Shown here: positions 1,161 to 59,429 of the stretch, in pieces | Layout: the number at the start of each line of letters is the position of its first letter | Position numbering within the stretch: position 1 is the first letter of the stretch | Assembly: GCA_963848305.1 (NCBI GenBank) | Contig: CAWKDC010000001.1 | Coordinates: forward strand, 672,001 to 736,000 | DNA: 64,000 nt | Source: an uncultured Gammaproteobacteria bacterium | GTDB taxonomy: Bacteria > Pseudomonadota > Gammaproteobacteria > JABCZS01 | Direction: 5' to 3' | Program-made: the position numbers and the translations under genes | The notes under the pieces: generated by a model | Seen by the model: only the letters and a program-made list of their open reading frames with translations | Told to the model about the DNA's origin: nothing | The model's database searches: none

Positions 1161-1943
1161 ATGAACAAGTATGAATCTGACAAACTCGCCAAACGTCTCC
1201 GCCGCCTGACCGGGCAGGCCATCGACGACTTTAACATGATTAATGCCGGTGATAAAGTCATGGTATGCCTGTCTGGAGGAAAGGATTCTTATACCTTATT
1301 GAACATCCTCCGATCGCTTAAGCCCCACGCCCCCATTGATTTTGATATCCATGTGGCCCATCTTGACCAAAAGCAGCCCGGCTATCCGGCCCATATCTTG
1401 CCCGACTACTTAGACAGTATTGGCTTGCCCTATACCATCATGGAAAGAGATACCTATAGCGTTGTTAAGCGACTGATTCCTGAAGGAAAAACCACCTGCA
1501 GCCTCTGTTCCCGCTTACGGCGTGGCAATCTGTATACCCTGGCTGAAGAAATTGGTGCGACCAAAATAGCATTGGGACATCATCGGGACGACATCATGGA
1601 GACTTTTTTCCTCAATTTATTTTTCGGCGGCACCCTGAAAGCCATGCCGCCAAAGCTCTTGAGCGACGATGGGAAGCATATCGTCATTCGTCCTCTGGCG
1701 TACTGTAAGGAAAAGGATATTGCCCGTTATGCAGAGATTCAGGCCTTTCCCATTATTCCATGCGATTTATGCGGCTCTCAGCCCAATCTTCAGCGCACTC
1801 AAATGAAGGAGATGATGAAGGGGTGGGAAAAGACACATCCCGGTCGTGTGGAAACCGTGTTTAATGCCTTGCAGCAAATTGCCCCTTCACAGCTCATGGA
1901 CAGAAACTTATTTGATTTCAATGCACTAAAAGATCTTAAATAG
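1161..1943 (+). CDS. ttcA: tRNA 2-thiocytidine(32) synthetase TtcA
   Basis: PP-loop [26 protein letters not shown]. Confidence 0.96.
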
Positions 1944-2021
1944 GACTGATTTCGTACTTTATATTTCTGTATCATCTATGATATGATGTTGCTTCTCTCC
2001 TGTTTCACAAAGAGGTTCATT

Positions 2022-2624
2022 ATGTCAGTACTTGTCGGCCGCAAAGCCCCCGATTTCACCGTCCCAGCCGTTCGTAACGGTCAACTGGTAGACAACTTTC
2101 ATTTTTACGATGCCATCAAAGGCAAATACGCCTTGGTTTTCTTTTATCCCCTTGACTTCACCTTCGTGTGCCCTTCAGAATTGATCGCGCTCGACAAACG
2201 CATGGATGCTTTCCGTGAACGTAACGTTGAAGTCGTTGCCGTGTCGATCGATTCACATTACACACATCATGCGTGAACCAACACAGCCATCAATGAAGGT
2301 GGGATCGGCAAAGTGTCTTACACCATTGCTGCTGACATGGCTCACAAAATCATGCAAGCATATGGCGTTGAACATCCTGATGCGAATGTGGCTTTCCGTG
2401 CTGCATTCATCATCGACAAAAACGGCAATGTCCGCTCACAAATCGTGAATGATTTGCCGATCGGCCGTAACATCGAAGAAATTTTACGTCTGTTTGATGC
2501 CGTACAATTTCATGCTGAACACGGTGAAGTCTGCCCCGCTGGTTGGAAGCAAGGTGACGAAGGCATGAAAGCCTCTCCTGAAGGCGTGAAAAAATATCTT
2601 GCCACAAACGAAGCAAATCTGTAA
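2022..2624 (+). CDS. ahpC: 2-Cys peroxiredoxin (AhpC/Tsa) with in-frame TGA at 2274-2276 where a conserved Trp is expected; probable sequence error
   Basis: FYPLDFTFVCPSE and GEVCPAGW motifs; both ORF halves are in the same frame (HHA*TNTAINEGGIG). Confidence 0.92.
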
Positions 2625-2678
2625 TATTGATTGCAGCGAACTGAAGGATCAGTGTGGTGCAAAATAGTATTCAACTAG

Positions 2679-2708
2679 AAAGCCCCGTTACTTAACGGGG
2701 TTTTTTTT
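2679..2708 (+). terminator. Rho-independent terminator
   Basis: gccccgtta-ct-taacggggt stem followed by a T tract, downstream of the peroxiredoxin. Confidence 0.85.
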
Positions 2709-2761
2709 GCTACTTGTTTAATGGTTCGAATGGATGTCGCTGTATTTGATATTAAGGAGTT

Positions 2762-4089
2762 ATGATGAAAAAATCTTTGGTTCTACTTTCTCTCGCCTCT
2801 CTTGCTTTCTCTCCCGCTGTCCTCGCCGCTACAACAAAAAGCACAGCATCAGAAATCGCGGCGCTTCAAAAGCGTGTCGCAGAACTTGAAAAAGAAGATT
2901 TGGGATCCACACGTGCATTGGGCATTGGCAATAAAGAAGTATTTGGTATTGGTTCTGATCAATACAATGAAGTGCTCTATATTAACGACTTTGGCGTGAA
3001 CACAGATCTGAATTTATTACATCAACGCCGCTTTGTGCATCAATATTTTGGTGGGTTTGAACATGCACCCCGTATCATGTTAAGCGGTAATGTCTCCGGC
3101 ACAATTGGCGCACACAGTGAACCACTGCATATCGATCTCGGTGAAGGCGAACAATACATGAAGGCGGAGGCTGAGGTGGATGTTGTCGGTTACGCAAACG
3201 AAGATTGGCTGGCGTATTTTGAACTCAATGCGAATGCATTCGGTGATGACACAGATCTTGGTATTCAGCAAGGGTTTGTCACTTACGGTAACTTGGAAAA
3301 AGTGCCAGTTTATCTCACGATGGGTTACCAATACTTGCCTTTCGGTTCGTTCACCACCGCATTCATCACCAACACTTTAGTGCGTGACATGGGGCGCATT
3401 CAGGCGCCAGGCGCTGTCTTCGGGTATGTGTTTACACAAGATCAATTTAACTTTAACACATCACTGTTCTGGTATGATGGTCGTACACAAATCACTGATG
3501 ATCATCAGCTGAATCAATACGGTGTGAACGCACAAATGCGTCAAGAAAAATATGGCCAAAGAAAGACATGTCCGTGACGCTGGGCGTCAGCGCCGTGAAT
3601 AACATGGCAAGCTCAAATGGTATCGCAGCATTTGCAACAGATGAAGAACTTGAGTTTTACGTTCCTGCGGTAGACATTCGATTTCAATTTGACAAAGGCG
3701 ATTTCACATTCCTGAGTGAATATTTGCAAGCCGCACGCTCCTTCAGCAAGGAAGATTTCACGCAGTATACAACTGGCCATCAACCTGGCGATGTAACACC
3801 TGAGTCTGCACACTTCGAGGCAGGATACAGCTTCCCTGTGTTATCGATGAATACACAATTATCCGTTGCGTATGACCAAACACACGATGGGCTGGCATTT
3901 GAATTGCCCCGTGAACAATATGGCGCTTCATACCAGTTGGCACCGTACACGAATACCTATATTACTTTTGAATACTTGCACAAAGTGGATTATGGAACAC
4001 GTTACATGGCGACCAACGACACTGGCACTGTTCATGGAACAGGGAACCAGGATAATGAGGTGATATTGCAGGTTAATGTGTATTTCTAA
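2762..4089 (+). CDS. Outer-membrane beta-barrel protein, LbtU-like porin; frameshift near 3555
   Basis: Signal peptide, short coiled coil, YLPFGSF..F.T..L...G motif, C-terminal Phe (QVNVYF). One added C at ggcc 3554-3557 joins the two ORFs. Confidence 0.65.
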
Positions 4090-12963: not shown

Positions 12964-13254
12964 CTAAGCGATTTCGGCAGAATGTTGAACCAAATCTTTA
13001 AGCGCTTTCCCAACTTTAAACTTCACAACCTTGGCTTCAGGGATTGTAATGGATACACCTGTTTGTGGATTACGTCCTTCGCGTTCAGCGCGTGTGTCTA
13101 CCACAAATTTTCCAAAATCTGGCATCACAAATTCTTCCCCATTCGAGAGTGATTCGCGAATAGCGTCGAACACAGTATCGACAACGCGCAATGCTGCTGC
13201 TTTGGTGATTGTGTTCTTTTCTGAAACGATGTTGACTAAATCTGACTTGTTCAT
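12964..13254 (-). CDS. hupB: DNA-binding protein HU
   Basis: MNKSDL, FGKF, REGRNPQTG, KFKVGKALKD. Confidence 0.93.
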   Translation of the reverse strand: MNKSDLVNIVSEKNTITKAAALRVVDTVFDAIRESLSNGEEFVMPDFGKFVVDTRAEREGRNPQTGVSITIPEAKVVKFKVGKALKDLVQHSAEIA

Positions 13255-25927: not shown

Positions 25928-28428
25928 TTATCCTGATGCGCCGTCACGGCGGGTGAGACCGTTGTGTCTGAGATCGCGTGGCACAGGAGGATGCAGCAGG
26001 GCAATATCCAGCACTTGATCAATCCAACGCACAGGCACAATCTTGAGATCTTCCAAAACGTTTTTGGGGATTTCTTTCAAATCACGCTCATTTTCAATCG
26101 GGATGATCACCGTCTTGATGCCTGAGCGGCGCGCGGCCAGCAGTTTTTCTTTCAAGCCGCCAATCGGCAATACTTCGCCACGTAAGGTAATTTCACCAGT
26201 CATGGCAACATCAGCATGGACAGGAATACCCGTTAAGGCAGATACCATTGCCGTGCACATGCCAATACCTGCACTTGGACCATCTTTCGGGGTGGCACCC
26301 TCAGGCACGTGAACGTGCATGTCAAATTTTTCATAAAAATCGACTGGTACGCCCAACGCTTGCGAACGGCTGCGGATCACCGTGAAGGCAGCTTGAATGG
26401 ATTCTTGCATCACCTCGCCCAATTGCCCCGTGCGGGTGACTTTGCCCTTACCCGGTGAAGAAGCGGCTTCAATCGTGAGCATTTCACCGCCAACAGACGT
26501 CCAGGCCAACCCGTTGACTTGCCCAATGCGATCATCTTCATGCATGACGTCGAAACGGAATTTCGCTACACCTAAAAACTTTTCAAGATTATTTGGCGTA
26601 ACCGTCGTCTTCGCTTCTTTCGGTTTGATCACATTTTGCTTAACGACTTTGCGGCAAATTTTTGAAATTTCACGTTCGAGACTGCGAACACCTGCTTCAC
26701 GTGTATAATCACGGATGATTTGCTTAACGGCTGCATCAGTGACTTTGATTTCATCATCTGTCAGACCGTTGTTTTTAATTTGCTTGGGCAGCAAATAATT
26801 CAACGCAATGTTCATTTTTTCATCTTCCGTATAACCCGCCAGACGGATCACTTCCATACGATCCAATAAAGCATCAGGGATACTCAATGAATTTGAAGTG
26901 GCAATGAACATGACATCCGACAAATCGAAATCCACTTCTAAGTAGTGATCGCTGAAGGTATCATTTTGTTCCGGATCCAATACTTCCAATAAAGCAGCAG
27001 CAGGATCACCGCGGAAATCACTCGCCATTTTGTCGATTTCATCGAGCAAAAAGAGGGGATTACGCACGCCGACTTTGGCTAATTTTTGCAAAATTTTACC
27101 AGGCATGGAACCAATGTATGTCCGACGGTGACCCCGAATTTCAGCTTCATCACGCACACCACCGAGTGAAATGCGGACAAATTCACGGCCAGTAGCACGC
27201 GCAATCGATTGCCCTAGTGATGTCTTGCCCACGCCAGGAGGAGCCGTACCAAACACAAAATGGGGCTGTACTGTTTCAATTTAGTGGCATGGTGCTCTGC
27301 TTGCAATTTTTTCGAGACTTTGCCTTTTTTCTTGCTCGCCTTGGCGGACAAACTGTGTAAACGCCCTTCGACGGCCAGATGTTCAATGATCCGTTCTTTC
27401 ACTTTTTCAAGACCATAATGATCTTCATCCAAAATCTTTTCAGCAAGCGCCAAATTGTAGGTGAGCTGAGACGCCTTTTTCCATGGCACTTGCAACATCC
27501 AATCCAGGTAGTTGCGGGTGACCGTGGCTTCAGCAGACATGGGCGACATGAGTTTCAATTTACTGAGTTCTGCGAGGGCTTTGGCCTTGGCTTCCTCAGG
27601 CATACCCGCTTCTTCTATTTTACGCGCCAAAGCTTCAGCTTCATTGGGCACATCATCAAGTTCAGACAATTCTTTTTGAATCGCTTGCATTTGTTCTTTC
27701 AAGAAATATTCGCGTTGCGTTTTTTCCATCTGGCCTTTGACTTGCACACGAATACGTTTTTCAACTTCCAACAAATCCAAGGATTTTTCTAAAAAAACCA
27801 ATAATTTTTCAAGACGCTCATCAACGGCCAGTGTTTCCAAAATAGATTGCTTTTCATCGATCTTGAGAGGCATATGAGCTGAAATAGTGTCCGCTAAACG
27901 GCCCGGATCTTCAATGCTCGCAAGAGAGCTTAAGATTTCAGGAGGGATTTTTTTATTGAGTTTCACATAATTTTCGAATTCATTGAGCACAGAACGCGTG
28001 AGCACTTCTGTTTCAATGCTGTTTCCCATTTGACTCGGCAAAATTTCATATTGCGCTTCTAAATAAGTGCCATTATGAAATTGTTCTAAAACGCGCGCAC
28101 GTTCAGTGCCTTCAACCAATACTTTGAGTGTCCCATCAGGCAGTTTCAATAATTGAAGGATATTCGCGCAAGCGCCAATATCGTAGAGATCCTTCCAACG
28201 GGGCGAATCAATGGAAGGATCGCGCTGTGCGACCAGTAAAATCTGCTTATCGGCGTTCATGGCAGCGGCTAGCGCAGCCACGGATTCTTCGCGACCCACA
28301 AACAGTGGGATCACCATGTTGGGGGATACCACCACATCGCGTAGGGGGAGAACCGGCAAACGGTCAGCGTGTTGCTCTGGCGCTTGGTGAGTATCGAGTA
28401 TCGATCTATCGTCTTGTCCAAAAACCAT
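25928..28428 (-). CDS. lon: ATP-dependent protease La; frameshift near 27245
   Basis: LPLRD N-domain, split Walker A (LVGPPGVGKT), catalytic [15 protein letters not shown]. Confidence 0.96.
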
Positions 28429-32198: not shown

Positions 32199-32272
32199 TC
32201 GGGGCAGAGGGATTCGAACCCCCGACTTCCTGAACCCAAATCAGGCGCGCTACCAAACTGCGCTATACCCCG
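32199..32272 (-). tRNA. tRNA-Pro(TGG), CCA not encoded
   Basis: CGGGGTATAGCGCAG...CCTGATTTGGGTTCAGG...GGTTCGAATCC...CCCCGA. Confidence 0.94.
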
Positions 32273-43324: not shown

Positions 43325-44512
43325 TTACAAATCCAGCAATAAGCGTGCGGGATCTTCTAAAATATCTTTGATCGTTTTCAAGAATGACACGGATTCCTTG
43401 CCATCGATAATGCGATGATCATACGACATCGCAAGATACATCATGGGGCGTATCACAATTTGGCCATTCTCAACCACAGGACGATCTTCAATTTTGTGCA
43501 TGCCCAAAATAGCGCTTTGTGGAGGATTAATAATGGGCGTTGATAACAACGAACCAAACACGCCACCATTTGACACAGTGAATGTACCCCCCGACATGTC
43601 TTCAACCGATAATTTATTGTCACGCGCTTTCTTGGAATAGCCCATGATAGCACTTTCAATTTGCGCCAAATTCATGTTGTTCACATCACGGATGATCGGC
43701 ACAACCAAACCACGTTCAGTCGAGACAGCGACACCAATATCAAAATAGTTGTGATAAATCACGTCATTGCCATCAATGCTTGCATTGACGGAGGGAAAAC
43801 GTTTCAGTGCTTCCACAGCTGCTTTCACAAAAAATGACATGAAACCCAATTTTACGCCATGTTTTTCGAAGAAATCATCTTTATATTTTGCCCTGATATC
43901 GCTCACCGCTTTCAAGTTCACTTCATTGAACGTGGTTAAAATCGCTGCATTGTGTTGCGCACTCATGAGACGCTCTGCGATGCGTTGACGCAAACGAGTC
44001 ATCGGGACACGTTCCTCCATGCGCTCGCCCACAGCTTGAACAAATGGAGCCGCAGGCGCACGAGGGGCGGAAACTGGTGTCGCAGCTGGCGTGCCAATCT
44101 TTTGCAGTATATCCGCCGTGGTCACACGTCCGCCTTTGCCCGTACCAGACACCGAGCTGGTATCTACGCCGTGCTCTGCAGCCGTGCGTCTCGCAGCAGG
44201 CCCTGCCACAGCCGCAGATGTTTGTGCAGGGGCAGAAGCCACAGGAGCCGAAGCAGCTGGCGCTGCAGCAGCACCTTCTTCAAATAAAGCAATGACTTCT
44301 TCTGCTTTCACAACGCTGCCAGCAGGTTTGAGGATTTGTTTCAACACGCCGTCATGTGGGGCAGGTACTTCTAACATGACTTTGTCTGTCTCAATGTCCA
44401 CGATATTTTCATCGCGTTTGACAAAATCACCTACTTTTTTATGCCACGTGGACACCGTCGCATCAGCCACGGATTCAGGCAAAACGGGTACTTTCACTTC
44501 AATAGTCGTCAT
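43325..44512 (-). CDS. sucB: 2-oxoglutarate dehydrogenase E2
   Basis: Lipoyl motif [13 protein letters not shown]. Confidence 0.97.
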
Positions 44513-47299
44513 ATTGTCTCCAAGGCTTGCGCCACCAGTGCTGTCTGTTGTTCAACATGTAAACTGTGATAACCTGTTGCTGGCGAAGCAGAGGCATCAC
44601 GGCCCGCATAACTCAATGTTTGATGTTTGGCCAATGAGGCGCGAAGATGGTGTTGCGTACAATACCATGCACCTTGATTTTCAGGTTCTTCTTGACACCA
44701 GACCACATCGTTTGCATTGGCATATCCCGCCAAGCATTCTGTCAAAGCTTTTTGAGGGAACGGATACAACTGTTCCACGCGAATGATCGCGACATTGCTC
44801 AATCCTGCATCCCGTTTCTTCTGCAACAGATCGTAATAAACTTTTCCACCACACACCACCACACGCGTCACATTATTGACAGGTGTTTTGTCCATGTCTG
44901 GAATAATTTCCTGGAAATGTCCGTTGAACAGTTCAGCCTTTGTCGACACCGCTGATTTATGACGCAATAAACTTTTCGGCGACATCACCACCAACGGTTT
45001 ACGGAAACGCTGCAACATTTGTCGGCGCAACAAATGGTAAATTTGCGCAGGCGTAGTAGGCGTGCACACCTGCATGTTGTGTTCAGCACACAATTGCAGG
45101 TAACGTTCCAAGCGTGCTGAAGAATGCTCAGGCCATGCCTTCATACCCATGTGGCAATAACATGGTCAAGCCGCAGTAGCGGTTCCATTTGGATTCTGCT
45201 GAACAAATAAATTGATCCATCACCACTTGTGCACCATTGGCGAAATCACCAAATTGGGCTTCCCATATGACCAATGAACGGGGCTCCGTACTGGAATAGC
45301 CATACTCAAAGGCCAATACAGCCTCTTCAGAGAGTAATGAATCGATCACGGTGAAATGATGTGGTTTTGAAATGGTCGATAAAGGGATATATTGCTCATC
45401 ATTTTTTTGCTCGTGCAATACAGCATGACGATGCGCAAACGTTCCTCGACCACAATCCTGCCCGCTCAAGCGTACAGAATACCCTTCTTTCAGTAAGGTG
45501 GCATATGCCATGGTTTCGGCAAATCCCCAATCGAATGGCAACTCACCAGCAGCCATTTTTTCACGGTCGGTATAGACTTTTTTCACTTGTGTTTGCAATT
45601 CAAATGTGGCAGGAATGCTTGTCACTGCTTTTGACAATGCATCAAACGTTTTTTCGTCTACCGTGGTATCTGCTGGCTTATCCCAATTGACTGTTAAAAA
45701 TGGTTTCCAGACATCTTTAAAGGGATTATCTGCATTTTCAACTAAATGAGTCACCGTGATTTTTCCTGCATCAAGTTGATCACGGTAGCGATCCACATAG
45801 GCTTCTGATTCATTTTGAGTGATGATTTTATCGGCAATCAAACGATCGGCATATATCGCGCGAGTGGTCGCATGCGCGCGGATATGCTGATACATCACAG
45901 GTTGGGTGGCAGCAGGTTCATCCGCTTCGTTGTGTCCATATCGACGATAACACACTAAATCAAGGACGATGTCTTTTTTAAACTTTTCGCGGTAATCAAA
46001 TGCAATATTGGCGATAAAAATGGCCGCATCAGGATCATCCATATTGATATGGAAAACAGGCGCTTCAATCATTTTGGCAATATCAGTGCAATAAGGTGTT
46101 GAGCGACTGTCCTCTGGATTAGATGTGGTAAATCCGACTTGGTTGTTAATCACGAGATGTACGGTACCACCCGTTTTATACCCGCGAGTCTGAGACATGT
46201 TCAATGTTTCCATGACACAGCCTTGCCCTGCAAAAGCAGCGTCCCCGTGGATGGCAATGGGTAACACTTGACTACCCGTCCAATCTTCGCGCCGTTCTTG
46301 TCGCGCACGAGCAGAACCTTCGACCACAGGCACCACAATTTCAAGATGCGAAGGATTGGATGCTAAGGATAAATGAACCACTGATTTATCTGTTTTAACA
46401 TCAGATGAAAAACCTTGGTGGTATTTTACATCGCCTGAACCAAAGGGTGCTTTGCGTTTGCCTTCAAATTCTTCGAATAATTCCGAGGGGGGTTTTCCTA
46501 ATAAGTTTACGAGCACATTCAAACGCCCACGGTGAGCCATGCCGATCACAACTTCTTGCATGTCCTGAGAACCCGCGCGCATGATGATTTGATCCAACAT
46601 CGGAATCAAGGTTTCGCCACCTTCGAGTGAAAAACGTTTTTGTCCGACATATTTATTGTGCAAATAACGCTCTAGACCTTCAGCAGCAGCGAGTTGTGTA
46701 TACACACGCTTGCGCAACTCAGGACCAAGTGTTGCCGTTCGATTGTCCACTTCAAAACGGGCTTGCAACCAGTCTTTTTCAACTTGTGATTCAATGTATG
46801 ACCACTGGGCACCCACTGTGCCAGTGTACATTTTTTCAAGCAGTGCGATGATTTCTTTCAATGTGGCTTGTTTTTTAAAGCTGAAAGGCGTTTCAAACGT
46901 GGTGTTCAGATCTTTTTCAGTTAAACCGTGAAATGCCAACGTTAATTCGCGCGGCGTTTCACGCTTCCACATGCCCAGTGGATCAATATCGGCTTTATGG
47001 TGACCCAGCGCACGGTATGACTCGATCAACTGATTCACTTCAATTTGTTTCTCGCTCACCGTAGCAGAAGCAGCAACTTGAACAACTGGTTGTTGCGCCA
47101 ATGCTAAAAACTTCGCCTGAATCGGCCGATGGGCAACGTCTTTCGCGCCTGCCCTCACGCTAGAAAAATAACGTTGCCATTCTGCATCGACTGAAGCCGG
47201 ATCATTTAAATAGGATTCGTAAAGTGATTCAATGTAAGCGCCACCATTTGAAATGGTGGATGAATTGACTAATTGGTTGTATGTATCGTTGTTTGACAT
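44509..47299 (-). CDS. sucA: 2-oxoglutarate dehydrogenase E1; frameshift near 45132
   Basis: [27 protein letters not shown]; GYEGxGPEHSSAR is split. Confidence 0.96.
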
Positions 47300-50547: not shown

Positions 50548-50662
50548 GAAGAACCACCTTGTATGGTTAATTTGAAGCGATATTATATACCTATTTGCGC
50601 AATTTAGGGTAATATACCTCTCGTCACTGAAGATGCGCGGCACGAACTTGGAGATAAAACGC

Positions 50663-51965
50663 ATGAGCAAGCAAAACGCAACGCTGTTGATTGAAGGCGT
50701 CACACTTGAATTACCTATACGCCATGGCACCATGGGGCCTAGCGTTTTTGACATTGGTTCAATTATTAAAACGCCTATTGGTGAGAACGGCGTTTTCTCA
50801 TTTGATCCGGGTTTCACCGCCACCGCTGCGTGCGAATCTAAGATCACTTTTATTGATGGAGACAAAGGTTCCCTCCTCCATCGCGGTTACCCGATTGAAC
50901 AGTTGGCAGATCATTCTGATTATATGGAAGTCTGTTACCTCTTGTTGCGTGGCCAATTGCCCAATAAAACTGAAAAATTTCAATTTATTCAAAACATCAA
51001 ATCGCACACCATGGTGCATGAACAAATGCACCTCTTTTTTAACGGCTTCCCACGTCATGCACATCCCATGGCTATCATGGTCGGTGTGGTCGGTGCCCTG
51101 TCTGCGTTTTATCATGACTCCTTGGATATCAATAATCCTGAACACCGTGAAATAGCCGCGTACCGCTTGGTCGCTAAAATGCCGACTTTGGCCGCGATGT
51201 GCTACAAATATTCTATCGGTCAGCCTTTCATGTATCCGCAAAATCGCTTGAGTTACACGGCGAATTTCTTACACATGATGTATGACACCCCATGTGATAA
51301 TATCCACGATCCTAACCCCGTGCTTGAGCGTGCGATGGATATCATTTTCATGCTGCACGCAGATCACGAACAAAATGCGTCCACCTCCACTGTGCGCTTA
51401 GCGGGTTCGTCAGGCGCCAACCCCTTTGCTTGTATTGCATCAGGCATTGCTGCATTATGGGCCCGCGCATGGCGGTGCAAACGAAGCAGTCATCAACATG
51501 TTGCAAGAAATTGGCGATGTCAAAAACATTCCCGCTTGCATCAAGCGCGCGAAAGATAAAAATGACAATTTCCGCCTCATGGGCTTTGGTCACCGTGTTT
51601 ACAAAAATTATGATCCACGGGCCAAAGTGATGCGGAAAACCTGTTACGAAGTGTTGAAAGAATTGGGCGTTGAAAACGATCCACTCTTTCAAATTGCACT
51701 CGAATTGGAACGTATAGCACTCGAAGACGATTATTTCATCGAAAAGAAATTATACCCCAATGTAGATTTCTACTCGGGCATTATCTTGCGCGCCATGGGC
51801 GTTCCGACCAACATGTTCACAGTGATTTTCGCATTGGCACGTACGGTTGGCTGGATTGCACATTGGAGTGAAATGATGAGTGACCCAGACAGACGCATTG
51901 CTCGCCCACGTCAGTTATACACTGGAGCAACATTGCGTGATTTTGTGCCGCTGAATCAGCGATAG
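50663..51965 (+). CDS. gltA: Citrate synthase (type II); frameshift near 51462
   Basis: [14 protein letters not shown], split [25 protein letters not shown]. Confidence 0.96.
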
Positions 51966-51996: not shown

Positions 51997-54183
51997 TCAT
52001 TTAACGTCATTTTTCGATGAACTGCTTGCGGCAGGTTCTGCTGCTTGAGAGATCTTGGCTTGCAGCTGGAGTTTGACCAACCATGCATAGTCTTTGTTGT
52101 GCAAAGCTGGCAGTTTCGACAACACCTGAGCCGCATCATTTGGATTGATATGCTCCAGCGCAGCAACCCAAATGCGGTACACTCTTTCAGATCTAGCACG
52201 CCTCTCTCTTGCCCTGCTTCCAGAAAAATCAGGATAAGCGCTTATGTTGACAGGTTGGCACAAATAAGCCATCATTTTCTCAACATATATTGTTCTGTCC
52301 GCCGGGCGCATGTATGCGACAAACGTCAACAGCATTTTAAATTCCCTGTCAAAGTCTTCCTGTTCACCTAAACAGGACATCCGTTTCTCGATCAACGGCT
52401 CTAGTATTGTTGACGGTTTATAACCGCGCATCATCATTTTCTGCAATGCATCACAATATGAGTCAGGCATAGTATTTAAATATTTTAACGCCTTCTCCAA
52501 CAATTCCCATAGCGCATTCATTTGCTCATCAGAAAATGTGGCACTCGATGATGCATACAATACGCACGCGGCATAAAGCGCAGGATTATAGGGTACGTCG
52601 CCTGCTGGGAGGTTTTCAACAGGGTTCTCATCTACATTTTCATTTGCGTTCCCAGGAGGGGGGCCATAAAGATCTTCATAAGCATAGTCATGGATCGTTG
52701 GAATATCATTTTCACCAGGATTTTCATCTAAATTTTCATTATCGTTTCGATGGAATTGTGTAAAATAGGTTTGATAGAGGTATTCATTAAGGTCTCCACC
52801 CGTGTATGCTGGATCGATGCCTTCATCAGCATTCTCATCAATTGAATGGCTGACTTCCAACAATTTATCCATCACATACATTGCTTGTTCGCTTGTATAA
52901 CGAAAGCCTAGTCTCCCCAATCCTTCGATCGCCTTGACTTGCCAGTCCTCATGCGCAAAGGTATCACCGCTGATGTCTTCCAGATGAGCGCTCATCCAAT
53001 CAATAATATGAGTCATTTGTACATCATTAAATTTTGCTGCCTCTGCTATTTCAATGATGTTACTTAAACTTGTCATGAAAGCATTATAGTTATTTCCCTG
53101 TTTGCTTATCCTATAAAATTTTTCGATCACCCAATCAGCATCCTCTTCAGTCAGCTTATCAGCATAAATAGTGATTGCCCGCCCTAATTGGATGAGAAAA
53201 GTGATACTCCTCAATCTCGATACCTCTACTTGCCGCGCGAGATGATGTGCGACTTCTTTTTTCCTGGCATCATCCAAACGAACAAAAAGCATCGTCAGTA
53301 CATCTGCCCCTAATATGGCCTGACCTGGATTCTCATTTTTAATGAGCGCTAAAGACATGTCCGTCATGCTATTCACTGTGTGGACATCACTCTGTACAAT
53401 CAACTGCTTTAAATATCCCACTTTATCAAGCCAACCGGGTTCAAATAGATCCACAATTGAGTTCGTACTCAATAAGATCATTTCATCGAACAGCTTCAAC
53501 GCTTTTGCACTCACTCCACTAGGTCCCATGACGGGAAGTTCAAATACAAGCAATGCATCCTCTAGCAAGGATTTGATGTTAAATTGACGTCTGTTCTCAA
53601 CGGTCGGCAGGTCGCAATAAAGCAGAGATCCGTTATTGTTGAGCTCACGATAGTATTGTTCGACAAACTGTGCCTTCTGCGACTCATCTAATCGCTTACC
53701 TATTGCAATCATGTTTTTGTATGTAGACATCAGCTTGTCAAACCTTATGCCATTTGTGAGCGGGTTGTACTCTCCTTGGCGATATGTAGCTATGGCATTA
53801 AAAAGTTGAGATGTGATGGCGTTGAATTGATCACTGGAAAATTCATACGTAAAAATGTTTAACCGATCAGACAAGTCTACGCCGGGTGAAGACATGATCG
53901 CATCATATAAATCATTGATTTCGACTTGAATGCCCTGAGGATCTCGATATACCCATTTTTGTAAGATCAAAGCACAGAGCCGATGATGTTCGACAGGTGC
54001 TGTGTGATCTTTTAAAGAGGCAGTGAGTATTGCCTTCCATCTAGTCTTTTCTGCTTCAGGCATGATCGCATTGCGTGCCAGAAGTTCCTTCATGCACTTG
54101 AGTTGCATGTCACGGCCTTTGTCGCCGCTTTGGTTAAAAATGGTCGCGCAAGAGGCGTAATCATACTGATAATGGTACATCAT
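51997..54183 (-). CDS. Hypothetical alpha-helical (ARM/HEAT-like) protein, 728 aa
   Basis: Long ORF, paralog of 55069-57054, with an acidic Asn-rich insert. Confidence 0.8.
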   Translation of the reverse strand: MMYHYQYDYASCATIFNQSGDKGRDMQLKCMKELLARNAIMPEAEKTRWKAILTASLKDHTAPVEHHRLCALILQKWVYRDPQGIQVEINDLYDAIMSSPGVDLSDRLNIFTYEFSSDQFNAITSQLFNAIATYRQGEYNPLTNGIRFDKLMSTYKNMIAIGKRLDESQKAQFVEQYYRELNNNGSLLYCDLPTVENRRQFNIKSLLEDALLVFELPVMGPSGVSAKALKLFDEMILLSTNSIVDLFEPGWLDKVGYLKQLIVQSDVHTVNSMTDMSLALIKNENPGQAILGADVLTMLFVRLDDARKKEVAHHLARQVEVSRLRSITFLIQLGRAITIYADKLTEEDADWVIEKFYRISKQGNNYNAFMTSLSNIIEIAEAAKFNDVQMTHIIDWMSAHLEDISGDTFAHEDWQVKAIEGLGRLGFRYTSEQAMYVMDKLLEVSHSIDENADEGIDPAYTGGDLNEYLYQTYFTQFHRNDNENLDENPGENDIPTIHDYAYEDLYGPPPGNANENVDENPVENLPAGDVPYNPALYAACVLYASSSATFSDEQMNALWELLEKALKYLNTMPDSYCDALQKMMMRGYKPSTILEPLIEKRMSCLGEQEDFDREFKMLLTFVAYMRPADRTIYVEKMMAYLCQPVNISAYPDFSGSRARERRARSERVYRIWVAALEHINPNDAAQVLSKLPALHNKDYAWLVKLQLQAKISQAAEPAASSSSKNDVK

Positions 54184-54199
54184 TCATTTCCAATTTATT

Positions 54200-55057
54200 T
54201 TATCTTAAGACAAGCCTAGATTTCTCGACAATGCAATTCTCTAATTCGTCAATCATTCTATGCTTAAGCAAATGATTGCTCGCTTCGAGATCAAACCCCA
54301 CTTGACTCGATAGATCATGCAGTTGATCCATGTCAAGATAGATCAATGTTTGACTCCAAATCGAGTATATATTCTCCATCATATGACTCATCATATCCGG
54401 TGAAGGCATAATTTTTATTCTCTCGCAGAGAACATTCGAGATTTCTGAAACGAAGGTTTCTTTTTCACCGCAAATATTTTCTTCCATGAATGTATTGAGT
54501 GCTTTGATATATTCAACTTTATTCTCATCATAGAGAAATTTCTTGAAATCATCACAGATATGTTTGAACAGCGCTATTCTTTGCTCGTGAGAACTGAATA
54601 CAATGTGATGACGAGACGCATACAAGTTTGCAGCAGCCTTGGTGAACGGGTTTGTAGCGGGATGATCCTCGTAATCGCTTTTGTGCTCATCGATCAATTG
54701 CAACAGATAATTCATTGTCTGAACCGCCTGTGCTTCATCAAGCTTGGGTACAAAGGCTTGAAGTGCCGTCACTCTACTATCTGCCAGATCCCAACTTACA
54801 CCAGGGAAAAGCGCCAAAAGAGCTTCCATCGCATTTGTGATTTGTGCCGGCGTTAATTGTTCCACGGTAGCTGTCAATTGCGCCGAGATCTCAGTTTCTT
54901 CATTCTGAAGATTAGCTAACATGTCAATGAATGCTGATGTGGTTACATCTAAAATTTTTCCAGACGCTTCCAACCAGTTTACCCATTCAGAATGCCCAAT
55001 GCTCGATTGGCTCTCAAGCTCTTCCGATCTTTCGTTTGATTGATATAAATTAAACAT
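54200..55057 (-). CDS. Hypothetical alpha-helical protein, 285 aa, partial paralog of its neighbours
   Basis: Shares QA...M..LL and AA..LY.S....FS motifs with both flanking ORFs. Confidence 0.75.
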   Translation of the reverse strand: MFNLYQSNERSEELESQSSIGHSEWVNWLEASGKILDVTTSAFIDMLANLQNEETEISAQLTATVEQLTPAQITNAMEALLALFPGVSWDLADSRVTALQAFVPKLDEAQAVQTMNYLLQLIDEHKSDYEDHPATNPFTKAAANLYASRHHIVFSSHEQRIALFKHICDDFKKFLYDENKVEYIKALNTFMEENICGEKETFVSEISNVLCERIKIMPSPDMMSHMMENIYSIWSQTLIYLDMDQLHDLSSQVGFDLEASNHLLKHRMIDELENCIVEKSRLVLR

Positions 55058-55068
55058 TGGTCACTGCC

Positions 55069-57054
55069 TTATGTGTGATGATTATTTACTGAACGTCTTG
55101 CGTCGAATTCGACTGATTGAGTGTTCCTGGTTTGCAACTGCACCTTGACCAACATTGTATAGTCTTTGTTGTGCAAGGCTGGCAGTTTCGACAAAATCAG
55201 AGCCGCATCATTTGAATCTATATGCTTCAACGCAGCGACAAAAACGGGATACACTTCTTCGGACTTGTCAGAAATATTTATATAAAAATTTTCCCCATGA
55301 CAATCATAAATCTCTTTATTATTGTGTCGGCACAAATAAGCCATCATTTTCTCTACAAATATTTTTTTATCTGCCGGAACCATGTATTGAATAAACTTTA
55401 TCAAGTTTTTACAAACGTCCGTGTCGCGTTCCAATATACTCAATTTGTTCATCCAAATTTCGATAAGTGGTTTCATTATGGTTGATTGCGTATAACCGTT
55501 TTTTAACATTTTTTCCAATGCTAGATAATATGAAGCTGGAGCAGTGCCCCCCAATAATTCAAACTCTTTAAACAGCAAACGCAATAGAAAATATATATCT
55601 TCACGAGAGAATTCAACATTCGATGAAACATACAATTGAGTCGCAGCCACTACCCCATCATTATAAAATAGGTTTTTTCCATTGTACTGCTCGTCAAAAG
55701 AATCGCTGACATCTAACAATCTATTCATTGCAATTTTTGCTTGATTTTCCGTATAGCAAGAGCTTAGGGTTCCCATGCTTTCGAGCGCTGTATTTTTGCA
55801 CTGTCTGTTACTATGTGAGTAAGCGCTCATCCCGTCTCCTTCTTCTACTTTGTTCCAAATCCATTCACTGATCAAACCGATTTCTGCTTCGCTGAACCTA
55901 TTTTTTTTGGCTATGACGATGAGCGCCTTCAAGACATTCGTCTTCGCTGTATCCAGGCTCATTGCTAGATCGGGATCTGCTGGCATTTCTTCTTTGTCTA
56001 TTCGAATCAGTTCTTTAATGGCATCATTGGCATCAGTTACCGTCAGATTATCTGCATAAGTAACAATTGCTTGCGCCAATTCGTTGACAATATCAACATA
56101 CATCATTCTGCCTGTTTTCACGCGCAATGCAAGCCTACGTGCCACTTCTATTTTTTTGAGATTATCAAGACGACTGAAAAGCTGCCTCAGCAACTGTAAT
56201 CCAGCTATGACTTCACCTTCCCTATCACTATTAATGAGCCCCAATGATGTGTCAGTGATTGTCTGCACTGTAGCGACATCACAGGATTCAAGCATTTCTC
56301 CTAGGCATGTTATATCATATTCACATCTACCATCATCATCTAAGATTCCTATTGAACTGGATATGATTGTGTCGAACAGCTCGGATGCAACTTTGCCCAT
56401 TTCAACGGGACTAGGTTTGATGCTTACCTGGCTTGGCTGCGATAAGACACTCAATGCCGCCTCCGCTAAGGGTCTGACATTATATTTACGTATCATCTCA
56501 AATGCAACAACTGACGATGTGTCATCGCTGATGTCATGACGGCATTGGGTGATAAATTGTGCTTTCTGCGACTCATCCAATCGCTTGCCTATTGCTGTCA
56601 AGTTTTTGTATGTGGCCTTCAGATTGTCCATGCTTGATATGGAATGATCGGGCTCTGGTTGACCATATCGCATCATGCTCTCAAAAAGGATAGATGCAAT
56701 GGCTTTGAATTGATCACTGGAAAATTCATATGCATACACTGCTAAGCGATCTGCCATGTCTTCACCCGGTGAAGACATGATTGAATGATATAAATCATTC
56801 ACCTCAGCTTGAATACCCTGGAGATCTCGGTATACCCATTTTTGCATGATCAACGCATAAATCCGATGGTTTTCCACGGGTGCTGTGTGATCCTGTAAAG
56901 AGGCGGTGAGCAACGCTGCCCATCTCGGTCTTTCTGAATCCGTCATTTGCACATTGCGCGCCAGGAGTTCGTTCATACACTTAAGACGCTTCTCGTGGGT
57001 TGTGTTCTCGAAAATACTTTCACATGAATTGTAGTCATAGCTATATTGACGCAT
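55069..57054 (-). CDS. Hypothetical alpha-helical (ARM/HEAT-like) protein, 661 aa
   Basis: Shares LTASL.DHTAPVE.HR, QKWVYRD, YEFSSDQF and LSKLPALHNKDY with the 728-aa ORF; AGGAGA RBS. Confidence 0.8.
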   Translation of the reverse strand: MRQYSYDYNSCESIFENTTHEKRLKCMNELLARNVQMTDSERPRWAALLTASLQDHTAPVENHRIYALIMQKWVYRDLQGIQAEVNDLYHSIMSSPGEDMADRLAVYAYEFSSDQFKAIASILFESMMRYGQPEPDHSISSMDNLKATYKNLTAIGKRLDESQKAQFITQCRHDISDDTSSVVAFEMIRKYNVRPLAEAALSVLSQPSQVSIKPSPVEMGKVASELFDTIISSSIGILDDDGRCEYDITCLGEMLESCDVATVQTITDTSLGLINSDREGEVIAGLQLLRQLFSRLDNLKKIEVARRLALRVKTGRMMYVDIVNELAQAIVTYADNLTVTDANDAIKELIRIDKEEMPADPDLAMSLDTAKTNVLKALIVIAKKNRFSEAEIGLISEWIWNKVEEGDGMSAYSHSNRQCKNTALESMGTLSSCYTENQAKIAMNRLLDVSDSFDEQYNGKNLFYNDGVVAATQLYVSSNVEFSREDIYFLLRLLFKEFELLGGTAPASYYLALEKMLKNGYTQSTIMKPLIEIWMNKLSILERDTDVCKNLIKFIQYMVPADKKIFVEKMMAYLCRHNNKEIYDCHGENFYINISDKSEEVYPVFVAALKHIDSNDAALILSKLPALHNKDYTMLVKVQLQTRNTQSVEFDARRSVNNHHT

Positions 57055-57135
57055 ACGTTATCTCCTGATGGGTGCAAACGGCACCTTATCACAGCTTGAT
57101 AACTTATGTCAATAGCCTTGTATTAAATTTTTTTA

Positions 57136-57411
57136 TCATTCCTTCTCTTCATGCTCAATCACGCGACCAGGGGAACGCCTAAAATCGCCTGCAACCACCT
57201 TATCAGATTGATAAGGGACGGGCTCTTGGGGGACAGGGGGCTTGGTAAAAAAGAGATAGACCCTTCTAACAAGTAATGCAACAAACCCAAATAAAAGCAG
57301 GTACCAAATGAACACTATTCCGAGCACGAATAAGCCAGCTAAAACCCCAAGGAAGGCCAAGCCTAGCAGGATAGAGATCGTACGTTGGATGAAAGAGAGG
57401 GTTTGTTTCAA
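57136..57411 (-). CDS. Small hypothetical membrane protein
   Basis: Long hydrophobic N-terminal half, charged tail, TTG start. Confidence 0.6.
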   Translation of the reverse strand: MKQTLSFIQRTISILLGLAFLGVLAGLFVLGIVFIWYLLLFGFVALLVRRVYLFFTKPPVPQEPVPYQSDKVVAGDFRRSPGRVIEHEEKE

Positions 57412-57476
57412 GGTAGTAGCCTAATAAGCCTATTCGATAGGTATTAGGCTACTCCATTTTTACCAGAGAATCAATA

Positions 57477-57662
57477 CTAGAAGTCGCGATCCATCACGGT
57501 TTTACGGCCATCACGCTTTGCTTTTTCAATGGCCTCATCGCACATTTTGCAGACAGCCCGGGAAAGTGCCTCTGCCACACTACCAGAAGTATTCATGCCG
57601 CCGGATTTTTCTTTGATGTACGCTTTGACTTTCGACACAACCACTAAAATTTCTTCACTCAT
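57477..57662 (-). CDS. Bacterial histone-fold protein (Bd0055/HBb-like)
   Basis: 61 aa; LVVxSKVK..IKEK..MNTS....ALS...AK.DGRKTVM.RD with the histone-fold RxTxxxxD motif; AAGGAG RBS. Confidence 0.88.
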   Translation of the reverse strand: MSEEILVVVSKVKAYIKEKSGGMNTSGSVAEALSRAVCKMCDEAIEKAKRDGRKTVMDRDF

Positions 57663-57679
57663 TACATGCTCTCCTTAGA

Positions 57680-58846
57680 TTAAAAATTAAAACCAACAAC
57701 AAAAATTGAAAAGTATGTCAGCAGCCAATGAGACACGATGACCCCAATCAATGTGGAGTGGCGCGTATACAACCAACCCCAGAACAAGCTTAACACAAAT
57801 GTCGACATTGCCAATAGTATTGAAATATTCACGTGAGATAAACTGAAAAATAATGATGCCAACAAGATCGCCTGCCACTGACGGTTTCTGTGGCTTAAGA
57901 ATGTCATAAAGGATGTTTGACAAACGCCGCGAACAATGAATTCAATCGCTGGAACATAGACGATGAACCCTGCTAACAGTAAAATGCGTTCTCTCGCTGT
58001 TAATGCGCTTAAAATGCCTTTATAAAAAAACACAGGCGCCTCAGCCATGCCAGGCACCATCGCATGGGCCGCCAGTTTCGCCAAGACTATCATGGGCATC
58101 ATGAAAATCACGCTGATCAAAATGCTGTCTTTCAGGGCATACTCCCACCCATCGATCGTGAGCCCAAATGTTTTAGCATGAAAGCCACTGCGGATCAGCA
58201 GCTGGTAAAAAATAAATGCAAACATTAACACGACAGGAATAGATAAATACACAGTGCCCGCTGACAAAGGCACAACGGCATTGAAAAAACTCATCCCCAA
58301 GACGTAAAAACAGACCAAAGCCATCAAGCGGAAAATATATTGCCCCAGCAATACTTGTTTTTGGGAATATTTGAGTTGATCTTTCAGCTTGAGAACAGCT
58401 TTAGAGTTCAGGTTACGGATATTTTGGCTGAGTGTTTTTGCGAAATTAACTTTTAAAATATTGGATAATGACACTTCGGGCTTGGAATGCTTTTCCAAAT
58501 CAGCCACATTCAAACCAATGAGCTTCATTTCCTCCGCAGCCCGCACCGTGGCGGACCGGGGGCGTTGGTCAATGAGGGAAATCTCCCCAATCACATCGCC
58601 CTTTTTCAACAGGGCAATGTGATGGTACTCGCCATGATCATCTTCTTTGAGAACTTCACCGGTTCCGGAAGAGATGATATATATCGCATCACCAGGCTCG
58701 CCTTCTTGGACGACATTCACACCCACATTGACACGTCGCTCATACATCAAGCCAAGCAGCTCCTCCATTTGATCTGGAGTTAAGCCGCTGAACAGTGGGT
58801 TGGATAGAATTAATTCCCTGGATTGTTTGCTTAATATTTCCTGCAT
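57680..58846 (-). CDS. Cyclic-nucleotide-binding domain fused to a CPBP (CAAX/Abi) intramembrane protease domain
   Basis: GEISLIDQRPRSATVRA phosphate-binding cassette; TM region with (I)EFIVRG, FSLSH and SHW. Confidence 0.85.
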   Translation of the reverse strand: MQEILSKQSRELILSNPLFSGLTPDQMEELLGLMYERRVNVGVNVVQEGEPGDAIYIISSGTGEVLKEDDHGEYHHIALLKKGDVIGEISLIDQRPRSATVRAAEEMKLIGLNVADLEKHSKPEVSLSNILKVNFAKTLSQNIRNLNSKAVLKLKDQLKYSQKQVLLGQYIFRLMALVCFYVLGMSFFNAVVPLSAGTVYLSIPVVLMFAFIFYQLLIRSGFHAKTFGLTIDGWEYALKDSILISVIFMMPMIVLAKLAAHAMVPGMAEAPVFFYKGILSALTARERILLLAGFIVYVPAIEFIVRGVCQTSFMTFLSHRNRQWQAILLASLFFSLSHVNISILLAMSTFVLSLFWGWLYTRHSTLIGVIVSHWLLTYFSIFVVGFNF

Positions 58847-58940
58847 GCCTGTACCCTAAAAACGGTATGAACGTTCCCTCCAAAAGAGTATAGACACAGA
58901 ATAGCCAGACAGCAACATAAGATGATAAGATTTTAAACAA

Positions 58941-59429
58941 TCATGTAAGCTTTTCAATTAACATATTTATTGCATTGAGCACCGCTGCGGCATAAAGCGC
59001 CGCCAACAAGTCATCCACCATGATCCCCACTCCGCCACTTACTTTTTTATCCAACCAACCAATTGGCCAAGGCTTCAAGATATCGAAAAAACGAAATGCG
59101 ATAAAACCGAGTAGTAACGTCAGGGCATTGATGGGGACAAACATCATCATCAGCATCATGCCGGCGATTTCATCAATGACAATACCACTGTGGTCATGCA
59201 CATTTAATGCATGACTGCTCCAACCGGCAACGTAAGTACCCACAATAATGACGATCAAAGTAATGAGTACATATAAGGGCCATGAAAGCAAAGACATCAA
59301 CATGATGAAAGGAATGGCAACAAGAGAACCCATGGTGCCAGGTGCTATGGGGCTTAAACCTGCACCGAAACCAAATGCGAGCACGTGGAAAGGATGAGAG
59401 AAGACGGTGCGTGTGAGTGATGTGTGCAT
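58941..59429 (-). CDS. pgpA: Phosphatidylglycerophosphatase A
   Basis: APGTMGS, VIDEIAG, FRFFDILKPWP, MVDDL. Confidence 0.94.
   Translation of the reverse strand: MHTSLTRTVFSHPFHVLAFGFGAGLSPIAPGTMGSLVAIPFIMLMSLLSWPLYVLITLIVIIVGTYVAGWSSHALNVHDHSGIVIDEIAGMMLMMMFVPINALTLLLGFIAFRFFDILKPWPIGWLDKKVSGGVGIMVDDLLAALYAAAVLNAINMLIEKLT

Follow-up and report, generated by a model that had tools for sequence, protein, structure and literature searches.

The stretch analysed here, called the window throughout, comprises 64,000 nucleotides (nt) of an uncultured Gammaproteobacteria bacterium (contig CAWKDC010000001.1). On its minus strand, at 57477..57662, lies an open reading frame (ORF) of 61 amino acids (aa) with an ATG start, which an earlier note on this DNA had read as a bacterial histone gene; the translation is identical to the one given there. 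The open frame around it measures 65 aa, and because just four in-frame codons lie between the preceding stop and the ATG, the start is unambiguous. The encoded protein has a mass of 6.7 kDa and a pI of 8.66. The strong ribosome-binding site seen earlier is indeed present, with an AAGGAG core 8 nt 5' of the ATG. It is also kept in two genomes of the same genus, and AAGGA- or GGAG-like sites precede the gene in 10 out of 10 relatives; a site of this strength is at most suggestive of a high histone abundance. The GC content of the coding sequence (0.468) is close to that of the window (0.461). The genome (1.89 Mb in 4 contigs, 92% complete) holds one copy of the gene. A second, weak histone match at C1:924578-924691 (E 0.047) contains an internal TAG and was taken as a chance hit.

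Family membership

By its sequence, the gene encodes an alpha3-truncated histone of the HBb/Bd0055 type, i.e., of the 'bacterial dimer' category that had already been defined by sequence clustering (Schwab 2024). Among the PDB sequences, phmmer ranks HBb/Bd0055 first (8fvx/8cmp; E 1.3e-13, 53.5 bits, residues 4-60), and a manual count on this alignment gives 33 identical residues at 57 aligned positions. The single sequence also finds HLp of Leptospira perolatii (9qt0, E 4.7e-7), 20 bits below HBb, and HTkC of Thermococcus kodakarensis (9f2c, E 1.2e-4). With a profile of 22 family members, the E-values improve to 1.6e-24 for HBb, 3.5e-11 for HLp and 3.2e-10 for HTkC; the same profile reaches HmvA (5.7e-5), archaeal histone A (3.6e-3), HMfA/B and NF-YB (0.09-0.7) as well as HPhA, and 19 of its 20 matched rows are histone-fold proteins. 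The likeness to Bd0055/HBb, which the earlier note had named and proposed to check with a profile search, is thus confirmed by both kinds of search. The histone-fold family is the sole Pfam match of the 61-aa protein, which in this respect has the single-domain layout of the 'bacterial dimer' type; against NCBIfam, nothing scored above the cut-offs.

The family is neither new nor small. Bacterial histones were characterised recently, in Bdellovibrio and Leptospira (Hocher 2023, Hu 2024, Schwab 2024, Hu 2025), and structures are available for HBb (PDB 8CMP, 8FVX, 8FW7, 9EZZ, 9F0E), HLp (9QT0-2) and HTkC (9F2C). According to Hocher 2023, 1.86% of 18,343 bacterial genomes encode histone folds. 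Our cluster search, which covered lengths of 33-107 aa, returned 1093 clusters at 90% identity (E <= 1e-3), with 59-89% identity to the histone among the matches listed. Relatives are encoded in at least 565 species genomes; Bdellovibrionota and Planctomycetota make up most of the best 80, which also include some Chlamydiota, Myxococcota, Nitrospirota and Gemmatimonadota and a few Gammaproteobacteria. The rarity implied by the earlier note does not hold in the face of a published family of this size. It is further undercut by the JGI annotation, which already labels relatives in the same lineage 'histone H3/H4'; NCBI carries these organisms as 'Gammaproteobacteria bacterium' or 'Legionellales bacterium' and the protein as hypothetical. 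What we observe is a known, structurally solved and numerous family that gains a lineage. Full-text searches of the literature brought up no paper that connects bacterial histones to Legionellales, or 'bacterial dimer' histones to Gammaproteobacteria; such genomes may already be listed in the supplements of Hocher 2023 and Schwab 2024.

Predicted structure and conserved residues

The AlphaFold2 (AF2) model of the monomer, built from an alignment of 22 sequences, shows helices at residues 2-19 and 28-50 (alpha2, 23 residues) and a one-turn alpha3 at 56-58. It superposes on 8cmp_A with a root-mean-square deviation (rmsd) of 1.9 A over 48 residues. A short alpha2 and an alpha3 reduced to 3-4 residues are the traits that define the family (Schwab 2024, Hocher 2023). 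The model has this shape at moderate confidence (mean pLDDT 71.2), including the short alpha2 helix that had been named earlier.

The ipSAE was 0.77, 0.74 and 0.76 in three predictions of the homodimer; the best of three controls scored 0.00. The predictions share at least 95% of their contacts, with a pLDDT of 88-89 and a partner pLDDT of at least 87. The ipSAE mark applied here is reached by 20 out of 30 proteins solved as same-chain pairs and by 1 out of 23 solved as single chains. In the predicted dimer, V37 meets V37', L1 (24-26) lies next to L2' (55-56), and alpha1 packs against alpha2'. The histone is thus predicted to form a handshake homodimer, which is the outcome of the AlphaFold dimer check that the earlier note had asked for (ipSAE 0.76 vs 0.00).

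For HBb, the main DNA contacts are N22, R57, S9, T53, T8, S24, K10, K12, K52 and K16, and an RD clamp is formed by R51-D58 with D49 (Hu 2024). Via the phmmer alignment, the contacts map to N24, R59, S10, T55, V9, S26, K11, K13, K54 and K17, and nine of the ten are identical in our protein. The clamp is complete as well (R53-D60 with D51), and the RxTxxxxD motif of the earlier note is found as R53, T55 and D60. Schwab 2024 names conserved lysines in alpha1, to which K11, K13 and K17 correspond. Across 233 distinct family sequences, K11, K13, A44, R53, T55 and D60 are invariant and position 17 is K or R; the L2 motif RKT (R53-K54-T55), D51 and S10-K11 in alpha1 are invariant or nearly so. From these residues, a DNA binding without sequence specificity would be expected by analogy with HBb.

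The residues associated with higher assemblies are absent. The position of the archaeal tetramerisation histidine corresponds to A48 in HBb (Hocher 2023) and is occupied by R50 here, so that wrapping into a (hyper)nucleosome is not expected. The face-to-face (FtF) contact between dimers involves R48 and N52 (Schwab 2024), where the histone has K47 and D51.

Among its characterised relatives, the protein is closest to HBb. Both are short (61 aa vs HBb chains of 64-66 aa) and share the S-K start of alpha1, the lysines at 11, 13 and 17, an MNTS L1, an RKTVM L2, the RD clamp, a conserved alpha2 cysteine, the short alpha2, the one-turn alpha3, the (here predicted) dimer and the lack of tetramerisation residues. 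They differ in one extra L1 residue (GG), in V9 for T8 and C38 for E36, in the position of our gene behind a gene for a cyclic-nucleotide-binding/CPBP protein (cNMP/CPBP), and in the host, which is a predatory member of the Bdellovibrionota for HBb and a gammaproteobacterial order with Dot/Icm genes here. HLp and HTkC, which represent the FtF type, have the alpha3-truncated fold in common with it, but their similarity is far weaker than that of HBb and they differ at the R48/N52 positions; FtF histones form tetramers that wrap about 60 bp of DNA, according to the HLp abstract. With archaeal HMfA/HMfB and HPhA and with the eukaryotic core histones and NF-YB, the protein shares the fold, the L1-L2 DNA-binding loops and the R-T...D clamp (profile E 0.004-0.7), whereas it has a shorter alpha2, a one-turn alpha3 and R50 for the histidine.

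Locus, genome and distribution

The features at the locus are collected in Table 1. The 17-nt spacing behind the cNMP/CPBP gene agrees with the earlier description, and because of this short gap the two genes are probably co-transcribed. The upstream protein combines a cNMP_binding domain (E 2e-16) with an Rce1-like/CPBP domain (E 6.9e-11). A reading of this protein as part of a Pycsar system was rejected: the PADLOC effector/TIR matches (24-30 bits) cover the cNMP domain only, and there is no adjacent cyclase, pgpA being the gene upstream. The run of minus-strand genes continues with pgpA, thiL (AIRS), nusB, ribH, ribB (DHBP synthase), ribE (two lumazine-binding domains), ribD and nrdR (ATP-cone), all confirmed by Pfam and co-oriented with the histone gene as stated before. 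The remainder of the window is core chromosome, with lon, HU, ppiD, sdhCDAB, sucAB and gltA.

Table 1. Features of the window around the histone gene, and the HU gene.
Feature	Position	Strand	Basis
Histone gene, single alpha3-truncated histone fold, HBb/Bd0055 ('bacterial dimer') type	57477..57662	-	ORF, PDB phmmer, profile, AF2
17-nt spacer with AAGGAG ribosome-binding site	57663..57679	-	sequence
Cyclic-nucleotide-binding domain fused to CPBP/Rce1-like intramembrane protease	57680..58846	-	Pfam
Two overlapping sigma-70-like promoter matches, TTGAAA-16-TAAAAT, 10/12; candidate promoter of a two-gene unit	58922..58957	-	consensus match only
Stable hairpin about 20 nt past the histone stop; putative terminator or mRNA-end stabiliser without U-tract	57410..57458	-	inverted repeat I4
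Predicted membrane protein, 91 aa (TM91), family unassigned; neighbour only	57136..57411	-	no Pfam, NCBIfam, PHROG or PADLOC match
HU gene	12988..13254	-	PF00216, 108.7 bits; HU-beta best match, below equivalog cut-off (Pfam, NCBIfam)

The promoter scan as a whole was not above chance (7 sites vs 5.0 +/- 2.6 in shuffled sequences), and it placed no promoter-like site between the cNMP/CPBP and histone genes; near the histone gene, the matches at 58957-58922, upstream of the cNMP/CPBP gene, are its only ones on the minus strand. The hairpin folds as RNA with -23.7 kcal/mol (z -4.47), and none of 200 shuffles was as good. Downstream of the histone stop, the terminator scan did not pick up a classic terminator, and an Rfam search over 56900-59100 gave nothing at E <= 1. 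At the same site, relative G002 has a canonical GC stem followed by T7, and G001 has a different, unrelated hairpin. The candidate promoter upstream and the hairpin at the 3' side would fit a two-gene unit with the histone gene at its end. In G001, G002 and G006, the histone gene is followed by a TM91 homologue (31-39% identity). In an RNA-library run (X16), two 151-nt contigs of a relative match 57439-57589 and 57683-57833 with 94-98% identity; by manual codon reading, the five listed in-gene differences of the former are all synonymous third-position changes. We take these contigs, whose depth gives no ranking of genes, as a weak hint of transcription of the histone gene.

Further from the histone gene, two paralogous minus-strand genes at 51997-54183 (728 aa) and 55069-57054 (661 aa), whose products are 46% identical over 367 aa, give rise to the DNA repeats D1-D4 and flank a gene for a 285-aa protein (54200-55057, minus strand). 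The local GC content dips to 0.35-0.41 across this region (51997-57054). None of the three proteins has a significant Pfam, PHROG or PADLOC match; given the Dot/Icm genes of the genome, they are candidate secreted effectors.

The coexistence with HU proposed in the earlier note is confirmed: the genome has four genes of the HU/IHF family (PF00216), one of them in the window. The fourth match is weaker (55 bits; C1:1486056-1486343, locus L096) and part of a 202-aa open frame, where the HU domain may be fused to something else. H-NS and Hc1 were not found in the 92% complete genome. Since four HU/IHF genes are also present, the histone adds to these proteins and does not replace them. Like HU and IHF, which have an unrelated fold, it would be a small, basic, dimeric protein that bends DNA at the minor groove without sequence specificity; the bending by HBb has been likened to that by HU/IHF (Hu 2024 as cited in Schwab 2024).

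The genome also encodes DotH/IcmK and DotI/IcmL in adjacent genes (C1:920666-922322, loci L108-L110), and the organism is therefore probably host-associated. Its order, with one family, four genera and 12 species genomes, has the histone in 11 of the 12, the miss being a genome of 53% completeness; in 30 other families among the 'relatives', it was found in none. Such persistence across a lineage is what Hocher 2023 uses to tell real use from contamination or transient transfer. In an evenly drawn sample of the class (401 genomes), the histone occurs in 9 of 398 genomes outside the genus, spread over six families. Of 400 genomes scored in the class sample, 91 gave a DotH/IcmK match, and many of these 91 measure 1.3-2.5 Mb. 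A class-wide association of histone and Dot/Icm was considered and rejected: the 88 other DotH-positive genomes gave no histone match, and the 9 other histone-positive genomes gave no DotH match, provided that both searches drew one sample, as the agreeing handles indicate. Among the sampled lineages with a type IVB system, the order alone has the histone.

The synteny check proposed earlier shows a gene order that is shared by part of the order. The five genomes of genera g1 and g3 have the cNMP/CPBP gene followed directly by the histone gene, and among the 12 genomes the cNMP/CPBP gene is confined to these five. In the six genomes of g4, no cNMP/CPBP homologue was found at E <= 1e-10; a recJ-like gene stands upstream of the histone gene in all six, and the locus then faces bfr, yajC and secD. 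In one of these (L007:983-1447, plus strand; 1757-3172, minus strand; gene names read from translated ORFs), recJ precedes the histone gene on its own strand, and on the other side, beside yajC-secD, follows a bacterioferritin-like gene of opposite orientation. Clustering of the neighbour genes at about 99 loci from many phyla revealed no partner across phyla; families recur only among related Bdellovibrionota or within the order.

The reading frame is intact in the eleven genomes of the order that have the gene, which speaks against a chance ORF. The ratio of nonsynonymous to synonymous substitution rates (dN/dS) is 0.02-0.10 within and between genera for the 7 out of 9 pairs that gave a dS, which is saturated, and the gene is under strong purifying selection. 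A gene tree of 103 rows and 62 columns was built from the window and all histone domains in loci L003-L092 and L099-L107, leaving out duplicates (L001, L097, L098), the chance match (L002) and the HU loci (L093-L096). Its resolution is poor (8 starred branches among 99 inner ones). The approximately unbiased (AU) test is compatible with a single clade for the order (log-likelihood difference 14.3, p 0.312). We consider one old acquisition by the ancestor of the order probable, followed by vertical descent and a relocation in one branch. The rows nearest to the order are weakly supported in this tree and point to no donor lineage.

A related arrangement turned up in three gammaproteobacterial genomes, one of them titled Thiotrichaceae. 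A 128-aa ORF at L069:3806-4192 (plus strand) carries two tandem HBb-type histone folds joined by a linker of about 7 aa, and L091 and L107 each hold two HBb-type folds within one stop-to-stop frame. First and second domains form a group each in the tree (SH-aLRT 95 and 97, respectively); the tandem duplication thus predates the species of L069, L091 and L107. The tandem protein is a pseudodimeric HBb-type doublet, distinct from the DUF1931 doublets.

As regards the integrity of the locus, a 259-nt contig of run X1, which may be the source sample, is identical to the window over 57459-57717 and matches the histone ORF itself exactly. From another study, X4 contigs of 92-93% identity span 57329-57520 and 57500-58315, the latter with 816 nt and 93% identity, and because they bridge both sides of the gene, the two junctions have been independently assembled. 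A further X4 contig of 1329 nt matches over 33 nt only and is unrelated. Run X3 has no contig over 57072-58009, and this uncovered part shows nothing. All runs in which the stretch is present are metagenomes from soil, sediment or wetland. Together with the gene order shared by four relatives' genomes, this answers the question of a chimera raised in the earlier note: the contig is not chimeric here. Its statement that the gene sits in a core region without a mobile element is likewise upheld by the core flanks and the native GC content. There is no tRNA near the gene (the nearest in the window ends at 32272), none of 6 flanking proteins matches PHROGs, and no flanking repeats were found besides those of the two paralogous genes. 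A tblastn search of the histone against phage and plasmid collections gave no match, and among IMG/VR viral contigs there was one partial match (residues 23-61, 54% identity). Elsewhere in the genome, lon (25928-28428), gltA (50633-51965), sucA (44509-47299) and dotH (C1:920666-921368) are each split into two overlapping ORFs, over which successive parts of a single Pfam architecture are divided. In this 4-contig assembly, the four split genes have the look of indel errors, for which long reads are a possible source, or of pseudogenes.

Function and competing explanations

Taken jointly, the observations are best explained by an HBb-type dimeric, DNA-binding nucleoid protein that acts beside HU/IHF, was acquired once and inherited vertically, and is encoded last in a two-gene unit in two genera. 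We hold this explanation to be quite probable, on the direct support of homology, conserved residues, the predicted dimer, phylogenetic persistence and purifying selection; the DNA binding, the abundance, the operon structure and the single acquisition we infer. By analogy with HBb, two 61-aa chains would pair head to tail into a handshake dimer. Its paired L1/L2 loops (N24-T25-S26 with K54-T55) would contact backbone phosphates across the minor grooves, and the start of alpha1 (S10, K11, K13, K17) would also touch backbone phosphates, without sequence specificity. The dimer may then bend the DNA, or coat it at high occupancy, and would act as a nucleoid-associated protein alongside HU/IHF. 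To this extent, the lineage may have the histone-based chromatin suggested in the earlier note.

A number of points weigh against this explanation. The two published modes of HBb disagree, one being a bend of about 84 degrees across 36 bp, seen in simulations (Hu 2024), and the other an edge-on nucleohistone filament found in crystals, with a dimer every 2.5 bp (Hocher 2023), and the mode here may be either. The net charge of the protein is +2, and the single differing DNA contact is V9 in place of T8. PF00808 (CBFD_NFYB_HMF) matches residues 29-60 only, with 20.5 bits (E 6.1e-4; 19.2 bits in the genome-wide search), below its curated gathering cut-off of 21.4 bits. This shortfall is a sensitivity limit of the Pfam model, and PDB depositors name HBb itself a CBFD_NFYB_HMF domain protein. 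Foldseek with the monomer model, also proposed in the earlier note, gave no match at E <= 0.001. In a wide VIA-align search, the best Z of 5.4 belongs to an unrelated helical hairpin and HBb comes 44th with Z 4.1; HTkC reaches Z 4.4 (rmsd 2.8 A over 49 residues), and about 14 of 50 listed rows, judged from their titles, are histone-fold chains, tied with non-histone helical hairpins. Fold searches with a monomer model that is a small helical hairpin do not discriminate and neither support nor weaken the histone-fold assignment. The dimer prediction may reflect the model's memory of the solved HBb dimers, and the RNA-library contigs may derive from library DNA and come from a relative. All 12 genomes of the order are metagenome bins. 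The gene tree puts g1, g3 and g4 in three separate places with weak support, which is compatible with multiple acquisitions. The six g4 genomes also carry the gene in a different context, after recJ.

One alternative is that the histone is a stage- or signal-specific compaction factor, expressed with the cNMP/CPBP protease and condensing DNA in resting or transmissive host-associated cells. The narrow gap without an intervening promoter-like site, the gene pair kept in all five genomes of g1 and g3, the probable host association and the link of Bd0055 to the compacted attack-phase nucleoid (Hocher 2023) speak in its favour. Gene adjacency is not co-regulation, however; the g4 genomes maintain the histone without a cNMP/CPBP homologue, no neighbour family recurs outside related genomes, and a developmental cycle is not known for the lineage, so that we regard this alternative as unlikely. 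It is very unlikely that the protein has a histone fold without DNA binding and serves as a protein-protein scaffold, as in TAF and NF-Y-like folds. Prokaryotic histone-fold proteins need not all be genome organisers (Schwab 2024), and the low net charge would suit such a role, but the identity of nine out of ten HBb contacts and of the RKT motif, the near invariance of R53, K54 and T55 in the family and the lack of a conserved partner gene at the loci compared argue for DNA binding.

The earlier note had also suggested redox or metal control by the cysteines of CKMC, with a disulfide or a metal at C38-x-x-C41 switching DNA binding. The two cysteines stand one helical turn apart, near the modelled alpha2-alpha2' crossing (V37-V37'), and the pair is kept in 3 out of 3 genomes of the genus. 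Yet C41 is present in 225 of the 233 family sequences, aligns with C39 of HBb and in the predicted dimer contacts V12, Y15, I16 and K19 of the partner, for which reason we read it as a packing residue. C38, which contacts Y15', occurs in 14 of the 233, where R is usual (180) and HBb has E36; 12 of the 14 come from the three genomes of this genus or from one 90% cluster, the exceptions being P0005 and P0079. C41 is thus a conserved, buried packing residue and the pair a genus-level substitution, not a family feature. Moreover, a mid-helix i,i+3 disulfide is sterically unusual. Hu 2024 and Hocher 2023, whose main texts were searched for terms on cysteine, disulfides and reducing agents, do not discuss such a role. 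Such control therefore appears highly doubtful. As for an assembly or binning artefact, or a recent horizontal passenger without a role, bacterial histone-fold genes are patchy, Hocher 2023 warns of contaminants, and several core genes are split in this assembly. Against this stand the presence in nearly all genomes of the order with synteny common to five, the junctions bridged by contigs of other runs, the native GC content, the strong purifying selection and the phage and plasmid collections without a match, viral contigs giving one partial match; this possibility is effectively refuted.

The accepted view of how HBb-type histones work is unchanged by the finding, and in an uncultured lineage the in vivo questions are no easier to address. 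A bolder scenario combines the elements above: an HBb-type histone fixed throughout the history of the order, a Dot/Icm lineage that is probably protist-associated, and placed in two genera in a unit with a cyclic-nucleotide-gated protease, could point to second-messenger-controlled compaction in a biphasic intracellular cycle. We think this improbable. If true, an order-wide histone with compaction under a cNMP protease would be convergent with the attack phase of Bdellovibrio and the elementary bodies of chlamydiae. What the finding adds is a gammaproteobacterial order with a persistent histone that coexists with a full set of HU/IHF genes.

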